A DNA stretch of 32,945 nucleotides from a virus. Under the pieces are notes generated by a model that saw only the letters and a program-made list of their open reading frames with translations, was not told the origin of the DNA and made no database searches. Within the stretch, counting starts at the first letter, position 1; every line of letters begins with the position of its first letter. Shown here piece by piece: positions 3,445 through 32,945 of the stretch. The stretch is from positions 1 to 32,945 of IMG/VR virus record IMGVR_UViG_3300045988_123769. One strand, 5' to 3'. A program made the position numbers and the translations under genes.

Positions 3445-4691
3445 TCTCTCACCCCATATAATACAAAATGGCACCCAGGATATATCAGCATACCCGTCCC
3501 GCCTATAGATGTAATTGGCTTCGCCCATAACGTATCACCATACATAGTTCGTTGGTTATCACCTACGGCCCCATACACCGCATAGTCGTGAGCTGTGTCG
3601 TCAGACCAGCCGACGTTGCCGTTTATCTGCGCGTGCTCAATCTGTTGTGCGCCAGATACATCGACATAGTATATAGTGCCGGTTATAGTATTTGTGCTTA
3701 TCTTAGGCCATACCGAGGTATACAGCAATGGGGTAACTCGCCCTGTCGTTTTCCCATTAATCATGGCAAAAGAATAGTTTGGTATGGTGCTTGTACCCGT
3801 GTACGCAGGGAATTTGGCGCATAGACGCGCCTTTTTAAGCCTAAATGTGTTCCCGTTTTCATCGGCATTTATGGTCAATGCGTTAGCTTCGCCGGCATCT
3901 TCGGCTATGGTGATTTCTTTTATTTTTTCCCATTCTTCCTCACCCGGCAGATCCACCGCCTCCCACTCCGTGGGCTTGCCATCCTGCACGGCCTTTACCT
4001 TGATTATCTGGCCGGGGGTGGCGGCGGTTAGGCCGAGGGATATAGCCGTATCAGCCTTGGCAAGGCTTGTCTGCACATCGTCCGCAAGATCGGATTTGGG
4101 TATGCCGGATGCGGGTTTGGTGTACGCCGTTCCCGCTTTTTCAGCCCCGATATTCGTTCTGGCCTGTTCCTGCTGTTCGGTCGTCAGGGTTTGCGGGGTA
4201 TAAGTCACGGCATCCTTGCTACCGCCGCTCGCTGCCGCCTCGTTTATCGCCGCCACAAGACTGCTTTTGTCCTCCGTGGTCAAGTCGGCAAGATTGCCCA
4301 TATCTGCCCGCAGCTGCTCCTCCGCCGTGGGCGGGATTGTGGGGAAGGGATTACCCTCCGTGCCGCCTGTCGGGGCTACGCTGATACGCGCAACGTTTGT
4401 GGTGATACGCGGGATTACATCTCCGTCCCGCGCGGAGTTGCCCACAAGCCATACGCGCCAGTCGCCCGCTGTAAGGTTAAGCTGCTGCTTAGCGGTTATC
4501 TCCCCGCCTGTCACGGTCACTTCGTGCACCGTGCAGCCCTGTCCAAACATGGTCTTTATCTCGCGCCCCGTCCAGTCCTCGGTTTCACACACCACCTTTG
4601 CGGTAAGGTACTGTACGGATTCAGCGGCAAGGGGGAGATATTCGGCGGTCAAAGATTGGTGGTTGGCGGTTAGGGTGATATTGTAGGTCAT
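3441..4691 (-). CDS. Tail fibre / receptor-binding protein
   Basis: 416 aa at the distal end of the tail module, ahead of the lysis genes. No specific motif recognised beyond position and size. Confidence 0.6.
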   Translation of the reverse strand: MTYNITLTANHQSLTAEYLPLAAESVQYLTAKVVCETEDWTGREIKTMFGQGCTVHEVTVTGGEITAKQQLNLTAGDWRVWLVGNSARDGDVIPRITTNVARISVAPTGGTEGNPFPTIPPTAEEQLRADMGNLADLTTEDKSSLVAAINEAAASGGSKDAVTYTPQTLTTEQQEQARTNIGAEKAGTAYTKPASGIPKSDLADDVQTSLAKADTAISLGLTAATPGQIIKVKAVQDGKPTEWEAVDLPGEEEWEKIKEITIAEDAGEANALTINADENGNTFRLKKARLCAKFPAYTGTSTIPNYSFAMINGKTTGRVTPLLYTSVWPKISTNTITGTIYYVDVSGAQQIEHAQINGNVGWSDDTAHDYAVYGAVGDNQRTMYGDTLWAKPITSIGGTGMLIYPGCHFVLYGVRE

Positions 4692-28311: not shown

Positions 28312-29454
28312 ATGGCGAAGCAAAAAGATGGGCGCTACCGTGCAAAAATAACTGTAGGCACGGACGCAAGCGGGAAAAGCATAGTCAAGTATGTATCAGG
28401 GCGCACCAAAAAAGAATTGGAAGCGGCTAAGGCGGCGGCGCGGGAAAAGTACGTCACGGGAGCAAACGCAGTGCCGGAGGGAATACTTTTTGACCGATAC
28501 GCGCTGACATGGTATGAGGTGTATAAGCAGCCGCATATAGGCGTATCCGCGCAAATGTCATACCGCACGGCACTATATAAGCACATCTTCCCCGCGTTGG
28601 CGGGGCGGCGGCTGACGGCAATTACCACGGAGGATTTACAGCGGCTGCTGAACGCCAAGGCCGACACGTGCGCGGCCATAATAGGCAACATATCTACAAT
28701 CCTGCGCGGGGTATTTCAGCGGGCGTATAGTCAGGGGCTTATCCCGCGTGACATCACTGTCGGGCTTACAATTCCGTCCAAGCCAAAGGAGACGCGCAGG
28801 GCATTGACGGACGCGGAGACGGATGCGGTTCTGCGCCTGATGGACGAGGACGGCACGCTAATGCTTGCGCTGCTATATTACACAGGTATGCGCTACGGCG
28901 AGGCTTGCGGCCTGCAATGGCGGCACGTTGACTTCAAGGCGGGGACAATCCGCGTTGAGCAGCAAGCGGCCGGCAAGACGGGTGAGATAGATGCACCCAA
29001 AACTGATAAGTCTGTGCGGACAATCCCCATGCCGCGCGATCTGGCGGACAAGCTGCGCCCCGTGCGCGGGCTGCCGCAGTCGTATGTAGTACCGTCGTCC
29101 ACAGGGTCATATCACCGCAATGCGACGCGATACCGCCTATGGGACGACTTAATGGCGCGGCTATATGATATCGCGCCGGAGATTGACGCGATTGAAAAGG
29201 GCGGGCGGATGATATCGGTCATAACCCCGCATTACCTTCGGCACAATTACGCCAGTGTACTATATAACGCGGGCGTGGACGTGCTTTCGGCGCAGAGGTA
29301 TTTAGGCCACACCAATGCAAAAATTACGCTTGAAATATATTCACACCTTTCGGCGCAGAAGGAAAAATACAGCGCAGAACAGTTACAGGGCGCATTTGAA
29401 AAAAGTTGCCGGAAAGTTGCCAGCCCCAAAGCGCACGGCAACGGCGGCAATTAA
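28312..29454 (+). CDS. int: Tyrosine recombinase (phage integrase)
   Basis: YTGMRYGEACGL (Arg), ITPHYLRHNYAS (HxxR) and LGHTNAKITLEIYSH (His and the catalytic Tyr). Confidence 0.9.
   Translation: MAKQKDGRYRAKITVGTDASGKSIVKYVSGRTKKELEAAKAAAREKYVTGANAVPEGILFDRYALTWYEVYKQPHIGVSAQMSYRTALYKHIFPALAGRRLTAITTEDLQRLLNAKADTCAAIIGNISTILRGVFQRAYSQGLIPRDITVGLTIPSKPKETRRALTDAETDAVLRLMDEDGTLMLALLYYTGMRYGEACGLQWRHVDFKAGTIRVEQQAAGKTGEIDAPKTDKSVRTIPMPRDLADKLRPVRGLPQSYVVPSSTGSYHRNATRYRLWDDLMARLYDIAPEIDAIEKGGRMISVITPHYLRHNYASVLYNAGVDVLSAQRYLGHTNAKITLEIYSHLSAQKEKYSAEQLQGAFEKSCRKVASPKAHGNGGN
29405..29421. repeat. GTTGCCGGAAAGTTGCC, copy 1 (inside the int 3' end)
   Basis: Exact 17-nt match to 29624-29640. Each copy is itself a dimer of AGTTGCC. 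Confidence 0.85.
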
Positions 29455-29478
29455 AAAATGCCTAAATCACTAAGAAAA

Positions 29479-29510
29479 AGCACCCATTTTTATGAGTGCT
29501 TTTCTTCTTT
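29479..29510 (+). terminator. Intrinsic terminator after int
   Basis: AGCACCCAT-tttt-ATGAGTGCT (one mismatch), followed by TTTCTTCTTT. Confidence 0.65.
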
Positions 29511-29623
29511 GGTATCCGGCAGCTACTTGGATTTTTTGCCCACCAAAGTACGTCATTGTCGCACAAAACGCCCGCAATTGGGCATTTTTGAAAACACGCG
29601 CCGCCGCAAACAAACAATAAAAG

Positions 29624-29640
29624 GTTGCCGGAAAGTTGCC
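29624..29640. repeat. GTTGCCGGAAAGTTGCC, copy 2
   Basis: Exact match to 29405-29421. Confidence 0.85.
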
Positions 29641-29659
29641 GGGGCATGGTGTAAATAGA

Positions 29660-29968
29660 TTACGCCTTATACATATCCTGATATCTTTTTACACGTTCCG
29701 TTTTGTCTATCTGTTTGCTGTGTAAATAGTTATACAGTGTCAGCATATCTGCGGGCGGGTCGCCATGCTTGGCCTTGTAGTCCGATATGGCGCGGGCTAC
29801 AAGGTCGTGCAGCATGGATGCGTGGGTCAGCTCCTGCCCCGATATGGTGTACAGGGTCTGCGCCACGGTCGGCATATCGTCCTTGACCGCAAGCGCCCAC
29901 TTAGCATACTTTTCAGCGTCCGCGATTTCTTCGCAAATCTGGTCGGATAAATCGTTAATCAGCTTCAT
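29660..29968 (-). CDS. Helical protein with a ferritin-like half motif (E...ExxH), function unknown
   Basis: 102 aa. INDLSDQICEEIADAEKYAKWA...GQELTHASMLHDL. A GGAGG SD is embedded in the upstream gene. Confidence 0.6.
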   Translation of the reverse strand: MKLINDLSDQICEEIADAEKYAKWALAVKDDMPTVAQTLYTISGQELTHASMLHDLVARAISDYKAKHGDPPADMLTLYNYLHSKQIDKTERVKRYQDMYKA

Positions 29969-30375
29969 TTTTTAGCCGCCTCCGCCACGGTGGCGACGGC
30001 TCCGCCAGTCAGACCCGTCAAGTCGTTATTCGGCGCACAAGGCGGGTTGCCAAGCAGCTTAAACGTCCCGCCCGTGGGGGTGGTGGCCACCACGGTGCTG
30101 TACTTGGTGCGCTTGCGCATGCTGCACGCTGTCACTTGTGCGCAGCAGCGGTTTGTCAGGGGATACTGCGCCGTGCCTGTGCCGATGGTGATATATACGG
30201 GCGCGGATATGGTGGTGGTATCGGGTATGCTCTGCGCCACGACGATGCAATATTTCTCGCCGTTGGCGTACACTCCTGCGGGCAGATTGATAATAAGCCC
30301 AGTACCCGCCACAAATGTCACGGACTGGGATATAATCAGGTGGGGGCAAAGCTGGCATATATTTTTACAAGCCAT
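29965..30375 (-). CDS. Cys-rich orphan protein (136 aa)
   Basis: N-terminal ACKNICQLCPH and an internal NRCCAQVTAC. AAAGGAGA SD. Confidence 0.6.
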   Translation of the reverse strand: MACKNICQLCPHLIISQSVTFVAGTGLIINLPAGVYANGEKYCIVVAQSIPDTTTISAPVYITIGTGTAQYPLTNRCCAQVTACSMRKRTKYSTVVATTPTGGTFKLLGNPPCAPNNDLTGLTGGAVATVAEAAKK

Positions 30376-30451
30376 AATTTTCTCCTTTCATAATCAAGGG
30401 GCGGTCAAGCCGCCCCGATAGTCACGGCAATGCCGGATGGTGTGTCATGTC

Positions 30452-31078
30452 TTAGCAGCAGCTATTGCCGCAGCCGCAGCCGGAGCCGCAAAACGGGCTA
30501 TTCCCGGCGTTATAGGTGTAGCCGTTGGGGTAGCGTACCACGCCCGTCAGCTGCTCACGCACAAAGAGTTGGTTATTAGCCTGCTCAAGCTGGGCTATGC
30601 GCTGCTCAAGCTGCGCCTTTTCAAGGGCCGCGAATTTTGCGTCGATATTGGCGTTGATGGCATCCATGCCGCGCTGCACGGCGCAGCAGCACTCCGCCAT
30701 CTGGGACTGTATGCCGTTCGCGGACTGCATAACGGTCATATTCGTGGTATTCTGCGCGAGGGCCATTTCCTTCCCCAGCTGGCCGATATTGCCCTGCATA
30801 TCGTAGCCAAGGCTGCATATGCCGTTGCCAATGTTGGTCAAGCGGTCATTAAGCTGGCCAAAATGCTGACCGAAAAGGATTTCCTGCTGCGTCGCTGCGG
30901 TCGCGTACTGGCCGTAGTCACCGTTGCCACGGTTGCCCCAGCCGCCAAAGCCTCCGCCCATCATAGCCAAAAGCACGATAAGAGCAAATATCCAGAATCC
31001 TCCGCCCATGCTACCGCCAAGGCCGTCATTTTTGTCTGTCACGGCGGCGATATCCGCCAAAGAGGGTACATTATCCAT
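30452..31078 (-). CDS. Gly-rich TM / coiled-coil / Cys-tail orphan protein (208 aa)
   Basis: GGSMGGGFWIFALIVLLAMMGGGFGGWG segment, a central ECCCAVQ, a heptad-like AQLEQRIAQLEQANNQL, and the C-terminus FCGSGCGCGNSCC. GAAGGAGA SD. Confidence 0.65.
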   Translation of the reverse strand: MDNVPSLADIAAVTDKNDGLGGSMGGGFWIFALIVLLAMMGGGFGGWGNRGNGDYGQYATAATQQEILFGQHFGQLNDRLTNIGNGICSLGYDMQGNIGQLGKEMALAQNTTNMTVMQSANGIQSQMAECCCAVQRGMDAINANIDAKFAALEKAQLEQRIAQLEQANNQLFVREQLTGVVRYPNGYTYNAGNSPFCGSGCGCGNSCC

Positions 31079-31129
31079 TGTCTTTTCTCCTTCACAATTT
31101 TATTTTTTGGTATATAAATCGCGCGTGAT

Positions 31130-31345
31130 TTATCGTATCTGTGATAAGATGCTTTCAGGGTCTATGCCGCGCTGCTGGCACAGGCTGTAAAACATCTGCT
31201 GGGGGTCACGCCCGCCGAGCATCCGCATTACCTGCTGCATTTGCGCGGGCATCCCCATCATGCTTTTGGCCTGTGCGATTAGCTGCGGGGATATTTGCGG
31301 GGTCTGCTGGCTTCCAGCTTTCATTGCTTGCAATATGGGATTCAT
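31130..31345 (-). CDS. Gln/Met-rich small orphan protein (71 aa)
   Basis: A strong GGAGGA SD lies 8 nt upstream. The sequence looks helical. Confidence 0.6.
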   Translation of the reverse strand: MNPILQAMKAGSQQTPQISPQLIAQAKSMMGMPAQMQQVMRMLGGRDPQQMFYSLCQQRGIDPESILSQIR

Positions 31346-31634
31346 TTAATTTATCCTCCAATTTTGATATTCGTGCCGCGAGGTCGTTAATGTCCACAGG
31401 CGGCGCAGGCTGATACGGCGTGATGGTGTACGGGGTTAATGTAGGATACCCCGCGCTGTCGGTACACTTGTGCCAGACTATGGGCGCGGTGGTGTCCAGC
31501 AGCAGGATGCTGCTATTGGGCGCAAGGCTGTACGCCTTCGCCCCGCCCTCGCCATTGACTTGGGCAATTTCGGTGCGCTGCTGGTACTGCTGGGGCTGCT
31601 GATAGCCGCCAAAAAAGGGGTTAGGATTCCACAT
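31206..31634 (-). CDS. Gln/Pro-rich orphan protein (142 aa as an open frame; the last ~45 aa overlap the next gene)
   Basis: AAGGAGG SD. N-terminus MWNPNPFFGGYQQPQQYQQ. The frame stays open 140 nt into ORF 31130-31345. Confidence 0.55.
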   Translation of the reverse strand: MWNPNPFFGGYQQPQQYQQRTEIAQVNGEGGAKAYSLAPNSSILLLDTTAPIVWHKCTDSAGYPTLTPYTITPYQPAPPVDINDLAARISKLEDKLNESHIASNESWKPADPANIPAANRTGQKHDGDARANAAGNADARRA

Positions 31635-31674
31635 TTTTTTCGCCTCCTTATGCCTTATTTTCGCAAAAATTAAG

Positions 31675-31705
31675 CCCCGCGCTCAGGGCGCGGGGAGGGA
31701 ATTTA
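31675..31705 (-). terminator. Minus-strand intrinsic terminator just upstream of the cargo operon
   Basis: On the minus strand, CCCCGCGC-cctga-GCGCGGGG is followed by CTTAATTTTTG. Confidence 0.6.
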
Positions 31706-31744
31706 TAGGGCATTTAATGAGCAAAAATATTTTTTCAAAAAAAG

Positions 31745-31833
31745 TATGCAAAACCGCTTGACAACTATACCGGAATAGTATATAATAAAGCCATGATAAA
31801 GCAAGGGGCCGAAGCCCCGAAGGGAGTTAAAAA
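31745..31833 (+). promoter_or_regulatory. Early/moron promoter-leader cassette, copy 2
   Basis: TTGACA (31758-31763), 17 nt, TATAAT (31781-31786), then a GGGGCC-ga-AGCCCC hairpin and a GAAGGGAG SD. Confidence 0.8.
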
Positions 31834-32565
31834 ATGTTGAACGAGAAAATGATAATGAAGCTTGAGGACGCGGGTTTTAAGCGCTGGACTAAGGGCGATT
31901 ACGACAGGCTTTACATTGACGCTACTGCCTGCGGCCTTGAATGCGACACTTACAAGTCTGGTAATATTTCCTCCGCCACTTTTAACGGCGAGAGCATCTC
32001 CAACGCCCGCGCGGGCCGCATGAAGGCCATGAAAATGTATGTTGATATAGCGACCGGCGAATTTCACGCCGAGCATGCTTACGGTGCTAAGGGCGACACC
32101 GAAATAGCCGCAGCCGCCGAAGCCATCTATACCGCAATCGTCGAGGCCGCAGAGGCCGAAGAAGCTGAGCAAAAGGTTGAAGAAGCCGAGGAAATGACCG
32201 AAGAAGAAAGGCATAGCGCCTTGTATACCATAAAGGAAGGCACGGAGATGTACGAAGACTATGCCAAGCTGGGCGCGCAGTACCTCAAGGGCGCAATTAA
32301 GCACGGCTATGAGATAAATCCCGTCGAATACCATCCTTTTACCGCCGAGCAAAAAGATAATTTTGCCTACTTGCAAGCAAGCTATCGCAAAATCGGTCTT
32401 GCCGAGCTGGTTGAGATGCTAAAAGACCCCTTCTATGCGCCCCGCGAGGACGAGATATTGGAAGCCATATGCCAGGCCCTCGGCCTTATGGATAGGTGGG
32501 AAGATAAAGATTTTTGCTGTGAGGATATCATAGAGACCGCCGAAGCAAAGCTGAATAGCAAGTAA
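31834..32565 (+). CDS. Acidic 243-aa protein: novel N-terminal domain, poly-E/A linker, C-terminal domain paralogous to ORF 420-704
   Basis: It sits behind cassette copy 2. The linker reads EAAEAEEAEQKVEEAEEMTEEE. The C-terminal IKEGTEMYEDYA...ILEAICQALG...DKDFCCEDIIETAEAK parallels ORF 420-704. Confidence 0.75.
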   Translation: MLNEKMIMKLEDAGFKRWTKGDYDRLYIDATACGLECDTYKSGNISSATFNGESISNARAGRMKAMKMYVDIATGEFHAEHAYGAKGDTEIAAAAEAIYTAIVEAAEAEEAEQKVEEAEEMTEEERHSALYTIKEGTEMYEDYAKLGAQYLKGAIKHGYEINPVEYHPFTAEQKDNFAYLQASYRKIGLAELVEMLKDPFYAPREDEILEAICQALGLMDRWEDKDFCCEDIIETAEAKLNSK

Positions 32566-32635
32566 AAAGAAGCGCTTCTATCATTATAGTACCACCGGGC
32601 GTGCAAAAGTCAACGGAAAAATATTTTTTCAAAAG

Positions 32636-32723
32636 AAAGCAAAACCCCTTGACAACTATACCGGAATAGTATATAATAAAGGCACAATAAAGCAAGGGGC
32701 TAAAGCCCCGAAGGGAGTTAAAG
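32636..32723 (+). promoter_or_regulatory. Early/moron promoter-leader cassette, copy 3
   Basis: TTGACA (32649-32654), 17 nt, TATAAT (32672-32677), followed by the same hairpin and SD. Confidence 0.8.
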
Positions 32724-32906
32724 ATGGAAAACATAGTAAATGTAAACGGCAACGAAGTAAGCATGGACGCAGCGGTTATGCTGATGGATGACGAGATCCG
32801 CGAAGCGATACACTCTGACATCGCGCCCTGCACGGAGCAGGAATTTGTGGACGAGTACTGCAAGCGCCACTTTGAAAAGTACGGCGAAGATTTTATCGTA
32901 ATGTGA
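32724..32906 (+). CDS. Acidic 60-aa protein sharing the YGEDFI motif with ORF 420-704
   Basis: It sits behind cassette copy 3. 15 D/E against 4 K/R. GGCGAAGATTTTATC is identical at nucleotide level to 468-482. Confidence 0.75.
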   Translation: MENIVNVNGNEVSMDAAVMLMDDEIREAIHSDIAPCTEQEFVDEYCKRHFEKYGEDFIVM

Positions 32907-32945
32907 GACAGGGCAAACGGGCGGGCAATGCCCGCCCACCCAGAG
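32827..32945. repeat. Terminal direct repeat, copy 2 (identical to 1-119)
   Basis: Exact match. Confidence 0.95.

Follow-up and report, generated by a model that had tools for sequence, protein, structure and literature searches.

A conserved, uncharacterised five-gene phage cassette with a predicted membrane-anchored coiled-coil core protein

We analysed a 32,945-nucleotide stretch of viral DNA (positions 1 to 32,945 of IMG/VR record IMGVR_UViG_3300045988_123769; hereafter the window). It is a fragment of a tailed-phage genome, with genes for TerL, portal, an HK97-type capsid protein and a tape-measure-like protein on the minus strand. A preliminary description of this DNA had singled out five minus-strand open reading frames (ORFs) at positions 29660–31634 as an orphan operon for Cys/Gly/Gln-rich proteins, with a possible part in lysogenic conversion of the host envelope or spore surface. 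We find that these genes form a real, coherent and uncharacterised phage module, here called the cassette, with the same gene order in about 100 phage loci.

Genes and gene order of the cassette

The five genes, named after the lengths of their products and numbered as slots in the order of transcription, are p142 (142 amino acids; slot 1, 31206–31634), p71 (71 amino acids; slot 2, 31130–31345), p208 (208 amino acids; slot 3, 30452–31078), which encodes the core protein, p136 (136 amino acids; slot 4, 29965–30375) and p102 (102 amino acids; slot 5, 29660–29968), all on the minus strand. Each starts with ATG and has a GGAG- or AGGAGG-type Shine–Dalgarno (SD) sequence 6–10 nucleotides (nt) upstream (GGAGG for p71). 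The p142 and p71 ORFs share 140 nt, and those of p136 and p102 share 4 nt (ATGA), an overlap through which p102 is predicted to be translationally coupled to p136. The motifs quoted in the preliminary description are all present: a Gly-flanked hydrophobic segment, CCC, AQLEQRIAQLEQ and a FCGSGCGCGNSCC tail in p208, ACKNICQLC and NRCCAQVTAC in p136 and E...ExxH in p102. The compositional label fits only some of the proteins. Cys-richness applies to p208 (nine residues, 4.3%) and p136 (eight, 5.9%), with a single Cys in each of the others; only p71 is rich in Gln (19.7%) and only p208 in Gly (15.4%). A hydrophobic leader is absent from all four non-membrane products (p142, p71, p136 and p102).

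None of the five proteins has a match at curated thresholds in Pfam, NCBIfam or PADLOC, and the cassette families in PHROGs (16490, matched by p208 at E 6.7e-16; 21718, matched by p142 at E 1.3e-12; and 22984) are all function-unassigned, in line with the first impression that the genes resemble no recognisable phage family. The NCBIfam scan gave no YjcZ match for p208, a resemblance that had also been proposed. Weak matches to Baculo_PEP_C, MreB-like_C, bZIP and ZorA all fall within the coiled-coil region and were treated as compositional; in PADLOC, only weak coiled-coil similarity to ZorA (E 2e-4) and AbiEi (E ~1e-2) was seen, with no membership of a defence model. The genes are nonetheless anything but orphans. 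A large protein collection holds more than 3,393 homologues of p208 and 2,947 of p136, all unnamed and mostly on contigs of ~40 kb, the size of a phage genome, and an exhaustive profile search placed p208 relatives in 850 clusters at 50% identity, with lengths of ~180–260 amino acids and no domain fusions. These numbers, together with the three PHROGs families, refute the orphan label.

We surveyed gene order in ~100 loci with p208 as the anchor and in 80 with p136 as the anchor; hosts of metagenomic contigs were assigned from the titles of metagenome-assembled genomes, among which Bacteroidaceae titles may reflect mis-binning. Across the ~100 phage loci the order is fixed: a p142-family protein, a Gln-rich protein of ~70 amino acids, p208, a small beta-rich protein, and a half-ferritin or an alternative to it. 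Of 91 loci, 89 have a p142-family member in slot 1. Two sequence types are found in slot 2, the type of the window (nine loci and the 78-kb phage of locus L121) and a main type (80 loci) that matches PHROG 22984. Slot 4 usually encodes a 130–156-amino-acid BclA_C/C1q-like family (81 of 96 loci) and less often a protein of the p136 type (13 of 96), and slot 5 holds the p102 family in 54 loci, DUF7841 in 32 (Pfam, 81 bits) and, in larger phages, a Tyr-, Arg- and Gly-rich helical protein. Over the best 80 loci, p208 identity is 64–100%. Checked in this way, the core genes do occur together elsewhere and in the same order, which bears out the view of a coherent, compact module, with positions 4 and 5 filled by alternative families. 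Because homologues number in the thousands and gene order is conserved, the five genes are real rather than chance ORFs.

The position of the cassette is also conserved. In Oscillospiraceae prophages it follows the endolysin and holin genes on the same strand and is itself followed by host genes or a convergent recombinase gene, which places an att site directly after slot 5; in prophage relatives, host DNA starts 350–460 nt past the last cassette gene. The counterpart in the window is the intergenic region at 29455–29659, between the cassette and a convergent plus-strand tyrosine integrase gene (28312–29454; Pfam Phage_integrase, 82.6 bits), where attP is expected. A relative with 94% identity to the window (MT835524.1, locus L008) diverges from it 3 nt past the p102 stop codon, which indicates that the integration module was exchanged exactly at the cassette boundary; a tRNA 3'-end-like sequence, GGTTCGATTCCC...CTCGCCA, lies at the divergence point (~29655–29760 in L008, compared with 29455–29660 in the window). 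The proposed placement next to attP, in the slot typical of morons, is thus sound: directly beyond slot 5, relatives continue into host DNA or into an exchanged integration module.

Several loci carry additional genes in or beside the cassette. Homing-endonuclease-like genes, recognised by eye from motifs, occur between slots 2 and 3 in L121 (2355–2915, minus strand) and after slot 4 in Butyrivibrio phage Ceridwen (locus L181; 6079–6942, plus strand). Ceridwen also has an extra gene between the hairpin that precedes slot 1 and slot 1 itself (3704–4081; QHJ73765.1), the 125-amino-acid product of which has a Cys/His/Asp pattern that recalls a papain-like peptidase and has no Pfam match. In the same interval before slot 1, an ORF of ~44–68 amino acids is conserved between Ceridwen and Oscillospiraceae phages (L088–L100), and one Neglectibacter-type prophage (L002) has a gene matching Pfam 'Sequestin' (PF21825; 6509–6757) between endolysin and holin that is not found in its close relatives.

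Properties of the cassette proteins

The p208 protein begins with an acidic N-terminal tail of ~27 residues that has a conserved SLADIAAVT motif, in which D9 is invariant. Next comes a hydrophobic core of 13 residues flanked by Gly runs, with a 19-residue Kyte–Doolittle (KD19) maximum of 1.97 at residue 28; this transmembrane (TM) segment is conserved throughout the family. The C-terminal part consists of a conserved VVRYPNGY.YNAG.SPFC knob followed by the Cys-rich end. An AlphaFold2 (AF2) model based on a diverse 62-sequence alignment, although of low confidence (predicted local distance difference test (pLDDT) 53.5), places the TM segment at residues 28–40 and a single helix of ~105 residues at 73–178; the CCC at the centre of this helix is present in 47–52 of the 62 diverse relatives. 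The N-side flank of the TM segment has a net charge of about -1.8 and the C-side flank one of about -0.4; Lys and Arg favour the C side in 22 sequences and the N side in five. This slight bias weakly suggests an N-out/C-in topology, with the Cys-rich end in the cytoplasm.

The p142 family combines a Gln/Pro/Tyr-rich N terminus, a conserved core of ~70 amino acids (VNG..GA.A....PNSS.LL.D...PIVW.K.TD.AGY) and a short LE..LE coiled coil. Over its final ~45 residues, p142 is a lineage-specific read-on that overlaps slot 2; the overlap between slots 1 and 2 is ~45–75 nt in relatives, compared with 140 nt in the window, and is always in the same +1 register. The p71 gene thus starts inside slot 1 in the +1 frame and encodes a small helical protein. 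Sequence and profile searches found no Pfam match or meaningful Protein Data Bank (PDB) match for the p142 family, and likewise no informative relative for p71.

For p102, the suggestion of a half-ferritin motif has held up well. Residues E14, D17, Y21, E46 and H49 are invariant in 14 sequences at 13–92% identity, giving the E...ExxH arrangement of di-iron ligands. A p102 profile compared with the PDB matched BfrB ferritin (3qd8, E 9.7e-6), bacterioferritins (2e-3) and symerythrin, over helices A and B only, and Pfam Rubrerythrin was matched in all 14 members, always below its 22.8-bit cutoff. Alignment and profile evidence confirm p102 as a predicted ferritin/rubrerythrin-like half domain that comprises helices A and B. 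No second ExxH occurs in residues 57–102, so the protein does not have the four-helix bundle with two E/ExxH pairs in a single chain; with a single pair, a complete di-iron site would need a dimer.

The p136 family has three invariant N-terminal Cys residues (C3, C7 and C10; CX3CX2C) and an invariant C43, all retained in Clostridium perfringens phage CPD1 at 27% identity; the CC...C motif highlighted in the preliminary description is not invariant. This set of four argues for a metal centre rather than structural disulfides. The idea of cross-linkable Cys residues is accordingly doubtful, as the invariant residues of p136 form a set typical of a metal site and the Cys-rich end of p208 is placed in the cytoplasm, albeit by a weak charge bias. 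A partial AF2 model from 26 homologues is beta-rich and poor (pLDDT 48.5), owing to the uniformity of the family (64–76% identity), and there is no signal peptide. A Foldseek search of the model against the PDB returned only noise (E 2.6 or worse), neither p136 nor 26 family members have a Pfam match, sequence and profile searches of the PDB gave nothing meaningful, and no relatives were found outside the family itself.

The family that occupies slot 4 in most other loci is different. Its profile matches BclA structures (E ~1e-4) and cerebellin, and, of 23 members, 20 match Pfam BclA_C (best E 2.7e-7); the scores recorded lie below the 38-bit cutoff. Alignment of the p136 family with this BclA_C-like family using hhalign covered only 17 N-terminal columns at a probability of 25%, indicating no relationship, and assignment of p136 as a BclA_C (PF18573) or C1q domain was rejected because neither p136 nor its 26 relatives match in Pfam. 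We also compared p136 with the Ena family (DUF3992): it has no Pfam match there, and its N-terminal Cys motif takes the form CX3CX2C.

Regulation, surroundings and phyletic spread

A feature that resembles an intrinsic terminator lies upstream of the cassette, at a distance of 40 nt from the p142 start: an all-GC hairpin of 8 bp and then CTTAATTTTT (31675–31695, minus strand; -17.3 kcal/mol). A hairpin and T-run of different sequence occupy the same place before slot 1 in most other lineages, and that of Ceridwen is independently annotated as a terminator. Downstream of the window hairpin (31643–31662, minus strand) are a -10-like GAAAAT (31662–31657) and an AAGGAGG SD sequence (31649–31643), the counterpart of a conserved post-hairpin element in relatives, TTTTTTGTAYCATAAAGGCA, in which TAYCAT resembles a -10 hexamer and has no -35 partner. 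We infer that positions 31643–31662 are a candidate activator-dependent promoter. Abutting the hairpin are two direct 9-mers, TAAATGCCC and TAAATTCCC, 11 nt apart (31697–31716, minus strand), which may be regulator sites; different direct repeats lie at this place in other lineages, and the 9-mers are short enough that they may be chance. Another hairpin (7 bp, all GC; 30398–30416, minus strand) lies between p208 and p136, a position at which five other lineages also have one, and could be an internal attenuator or an mRNA-stabilising element. A scan of 29300–32945 against Rfam gave only a chance-level match (E 0.83). Comparison by eye with the Bacillus sigma-E, K, G and F consensus sequences upstream of the hairpin yielded one loose ATA-N17-CATACTTT match, which was dropped because it is not conserved in other lineages.

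A stand-alone protein of 80–115 amino acids that corresponds to sigma-70 region 4 (Sigma70_r4_2, 34.4 bits against a cutoff of 25.7) is encoded before slot 1 in 56 of 88 loci. In one of these (L001) the sigma-4-like gene begins 7 nt past the holin stop codon, which suggests co-transcription with holin and hence late lytic control.

The lysis region of the window lies at its other end on the minus strand, where an NlpC/P60 endolysin gene (1679–2467) is followed by two small ORFs for membrane proteins (1077–1675): the first product, of 104 amino acids, combines an N-terminal TM segment with a coiled coil, and the second, of 92 amino acids, is multi-TM and holin-like, neither with a Pfam match. 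Two plus-strand genes, as well as the ends of the window, lie between these lysis genes (1077–2467) and the cassette. Like the integrase, two helix-turn-helix (HTH) regulators are encoded on the plus strand. The preliminary description had placed an early promoter region upstream of the cassette; two perfect sigma-70 promoters (TTGACA-N17-TATAAT) are indeed found there, but they fire away from the cassette, into the two plus-strand genes. One of these genes (32724–32906) encodes a 60-amino-acid AcrIC5-family anti-CRISPR (Pfam PF22147; 82 bits, where the cutoff is 27), with its promoter at 32649–32677 and a small GC hairpin between promoter and gene. A second unit of promoter (31758–31786) and GC hairpin (31805–31818) precedes an ORF for a highly acidic protein of 243 amino acids (31834–32565), which has no family match and is a candidate second anti-defence gene at the AcrIC5 locus.

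Most hosts of cassette-bearing phages are Oscillospiraceae, Lachnospiraceae and Clostridium, mostly monoderm Bacillota. Oscillospiraceae and Lachnospiraceae include sporulating members. Butyrivibrio fibrisolvens, the host of Ceridwen, is non-sporulating. Directly after its endolysin and holin-like genes, Ceridwen has a sigma-4-like ORF (recognised by eye, without a match to Pfam or to the slot-0 hidden Markov model (HMM)), a terminator and genes of the slot 1, slot 2, p208-like and BclA_C-like families (HMM E-values 9e-19, 7e-13, 1e-14 and 2e-15, respectively). Its annotated genes all share one strand, and no integrase is annotated among them. Only lytic growth of Ceridwen has been observed, and its authors conclude that it is virulent (PMC7372960). 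In CPD1, sigma-4-like, p142-like, p208-like and p136-like genes lie downstream of amidase and holin genes; the 'integrase' label in the CPD1 record was judged unreliable and not used, as its neighbours are loosely labelled (for example, an 86-amino-acid 'recombination related exonuclease'). Phages of ~75–80 kb, such as that of L121, have the cassette mid-genome, adjoining an XhlA-like gene.

The core protein extends further. Members of the p208 family (HMM E 5e-20) are encoded after holin and L,D-carboxypeptidase genes in crAss-like phages, for example cr116_1 (L184; 3632–4528), and in a Bacteroides phage, the cultured C3_41T2LP. Crassvirales infect Bacteroidales. A weaker match is present in the predicted archaeal Methanomassiliicoccales virus vir335 (27% identity, E 3e-8). 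Automated labels on p208 homologues, such as 'spike protein/glycoprotein' and 'outer capsid protein/viral fiber', look like coiled-coil artefacts. We found nothing relevant in the literature on DUF7841, on phage BclA/C1q-like modules or on the crAss 'spike glycoprotein'.

Possible roles and known systems

We favour, tentatively and with considerable room for error, a cassette that is a separately regulated and probably late-expressed unit, the products of which sit on a membrane-anchored coiled-coil stalk, probably at the cytoplasmic face, and include metal-binding components. The existence of the genes, their conserved synteny, the domain features, the ferritin-like motif, the position of the cassette and its phyletic spread are shown by the sequences. 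In this proposal we infer the membrane topology, the formation of a complex, the timing of expression and any biochemical activity. As the invariant core, p208 would be bitopic, its acidic N-terminal tail probably extracellular and its coiled-coil stalk and Cys-rich tip probably cytoplasmic. Because none of the other four products has a signal peptide, p142, p71, the small beta-rich 'head' protein and p102 would come together on this stalk on the cytoplasmic side of the membrane. In the window the head would be p136, with its metal-type site (CX3CX2C...C); in most relatives a trimeric BclA-C/C1q-like domain would take its place. Next to the head, p102 would dimerise to complete a di-iron site. 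The cassette would be its own transcription unit, insulated upstream by the hairpin and T-run and with a second hairpin after p208, and, most simply, would be switched on in a cascade in which the late operon supplies the sigma-4-like activator, encoded in most relatives at the very end of the lysis operon. The separate unit, the hairpins and the place of the sigma-4-like gene together make a very late, activator-dependent burst, as lytic growth ends, the likeliest pattern of expression. The product would be a membrane-bound complex that contains metal and Cys residues and acts around lysis and release, rather than a factor of the lysogen.

Several observations weigh against this proposal. In the window, two divergently transcribed genes split the cassette from the lysis genes, no sigma-70 -35/-10 pair, and thus no promoter, was identified on the cassette strand, and no sigma-4-like gene was found there or in MT835524.1; with that gene absent and the link to the lysis genes lost, the cassette could have become prophage-expressed in this phage. 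Both AF2 models are of low confidence (pLDDT 48.5 for p136 and 53.5 for p208), the topology rests on a weak charge bias, and the genes that flank the p208 homologue in crAss-like phages are not detectably homologous to the other slots. Adjacency to lysis genes may also just reflect the tolerance of operon ends to insertions.

The lysogenic-conversion reading that prompted interest in the locus, in which a prophage-expressed moron alters the host envelope or builds a Cys-cross-linked layer on the spore surface similar to an exosporium, now seems unlikely. The cassette does lie in the classic moron slot between lysis module and att, as expected for a temperate phage; it is bounded by terminator-like hairpins, and the copy in the window is uncoupled from the late operon. 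Slot 4 of most relatives resembles the C-terminal domain of BclA from the exosporium nap of Bacillus, the absence of signal peptides recalls coat proteins assembled in the mother cell, the stand-alone sigma-4/LuxR-type regulator recalls GerE, and many hosts are Oscillospiraceae or Lachnospiraceae. However, the full cassette is present in Ceridwen, which has been seen only in lytic growth, has no annotated integrase and infects a non-sporulating Butyrivibrio, so carriage is not confined to temperate phages, and the p208 family reaches Crassvirales and a Bacteroides phage. Moreover, the sigma-4-like gene is apparently co-transcribed with holin, sequence comparison relates p136 itself to neither BclA_C nor Ena (DUF3992) nor any coat family, collagen repeats are absent, no sporulation-type promoter was seen by eye, and the invariant Cys pattern suggests a metal site. 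For the family as a whole, the claims of lysogenic conversion and of a spore coat or exosporium are therefore mostly unsupported: with relatives in a lytically growing phage of a non-sporulating host, the cassette, as judged from sequence, is probably neither specific to lysogeny nor a module of the spore surface.

A system for superinfection exclusion or competition between phages, in which a membrane-anchored complex stops other phages from injecting DNA or aborts their infection, would be useful to temperate and virulent carriers alike, but we think it a poor bet. It would account for the membrane protein, for the shuffling of the cassette among phages with different integrases and structural modules, for the anti-CRISPR locus directly alongside in a variable region and for the swapping of unrelated families at slots 4 and 5, as in an arms race; p208 is also weakly similar to the tail of ZorA (E 2e-4 in PADLOC and 1.8e-3 in NCBIfam). 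Yet that similarity lies in the coiled-coil region, no PADLOC family is convincing, there is no nuclease, NTPase, protease or toxin domain, and p208 is unusually conserved (64–100% over the best 80 loci), which is atypical of an arms race. Exclusion systems usually act early or in the lysogen, and linkage to the late operon fits this poorly. Still less probable is an accessory lysis function akin to that of spanins, with the p208 coiled coil outside the membrane helping to breach an outer membrane, S-layer or capsule in the final step. The gene recurs just past endolysin and holin in phages of monoderm and diderm hosts, p208 has the N-terminal TM segment, long coiled coil and conserved Cys of the i-spanin Rz, and small overlapping genes are close by; against this, no product has a lipobox and hence there is no lipoprotein partner, most hosts are monoderm Bacillota, the acidic N-terminal tail favours N-out/C-in, the partners lack export signals and no spanin family in Pfam or PHROGs shows sequence similarity. 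The least credible of these options is that the proteins are virion-associated, for instance as a fibre or decoration bearing a C1q-like head. Receptor-binding fibres of viruses often have C1q/TNF-like heads on trimeric stalks, crAss-like homologues are labelled 'spike protein/glycoprotein' or 'viral fiber', and late expression is likely. These labels are automated, non-experimental coiled-coil matches, though; the TM segment is conserved across the p208 family, the genes lie past the lysis cassette and outside the morphogenesis operon, and ferritin-like and Gln-rich proteins would be atypical in a virion module.

A more specific and highly speculative possibility, which we regard as improbable, is a membrane-anchored iron/Cys redox complex. 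Here the four-Cys p136 and the di-iron half-ferritin p102 would be the two parts of a split, rubrerythrin-like module attached to p208 at its Cys-rich tip, sensing or detoxifying oxygen or peroxide at the end of the infection of strict anaerobes (Clostridia, Bacteroidales and possibly methanogens) and thereby timing or protecting lysis and virion release. If this were true, phages across host phyla of the gut would share an environmental sensor or protector of a new class.

Thousands of gut phage genomes carry the cassette or its core, including prophages of Oscillospiraceae and Lachnospiraceae, isolates on C. perfringens and Butyrivibrio and, for the core only, Crassvirales. The cassette appears to combine its own regulation and a fixed gene order with a membrane anchor, a metal site of the ferritin type and heads that can be exchanged, the signature of a real molecular machine. 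Defining the cassette would fill a recurrent blank beside the lysis genes of many gut phages and may reveal a step of the infection cycle outside current models, whether in release, exclusion or redox. Two carriers can be cultured: Ceridwen, with B. fibrisolvens as its host, and CPD1-like phages, with C. perfringens as theirs.

The cassette has partial likenesses to several known systems. As with the two-component spanins of lambda (Rz/Rz1), it lies (in relatives) downstream of holin and endolysin, has overlapping small genes and includes a protein whose N-terminal TM segment precedes a long coiled coil that carries conserved Cys residues. It has no sequence homology to spanins and no outer-membrane lipoprotein partner, its hosts are mostly monoderm, the p208 topology is apparently opposite, and it comprises five or six genes, among them those for a ferritin-like protein and a C1q-like or four-Cys protein. 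XhlA/BhlA-type membrane proteins of Bacillota phages are likewise bitopic, small and provided with a coiled coil and encoded in or near the lysis cassette, and an XhlA-like gene adjoins the cassette in L121, but they are not homologous to p208, a protein of two to three times their length that ends in a Cys-rich tip and has four partners dedicated to it.

Classical morons (lambda bor, staphylococcal and streptococcal toxin genes and the SP-beta sublancin operon) share the genomic slot, the insulation by terminators and the movement between phages with different integrases. They differ in that the cassette is present in a lytic phage without an annotated integrase, has its core in Crassvirales and a regulator apparently co-transcribed with holin, and in that no autonomous sigma-70 promoter was found. 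With BclA of the exosporium nap and the Cys-rich exosporium and Ena proteins of Bacillus, the cassette shares a sub-threshold BclA-C/C1q-like jelly-roll in 81 of 96 loci, the absence of signal peptides and terminal Cys motifs; in contrast, p136 of the window has no detectable similarity to BclA_C or DUF3992, there is no collagen-like stalk or exosporium-targeting N-terminal motif, and the cassette is phage-borne and found also in phages of non-sporulating hosts. Finally, p102 shares helices A and B and the E-x6-Y...ExxH pattern with ferritin-like di-iron proteins (bacterioferritin/BfrB, rubrerythrin, symerythrin and encapsulated half ferritins), and relatives with 29–92% identity to p102 keep this pattern without exception. 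The p102 protein differs from the ferritin-like proteins in having a single ligand-bearing helix pair in 102 amino acids and sub-threshold Pfam scores, and in its apparent coupling to a four-Cys protein within a phage cassette, a context known for none of these families.

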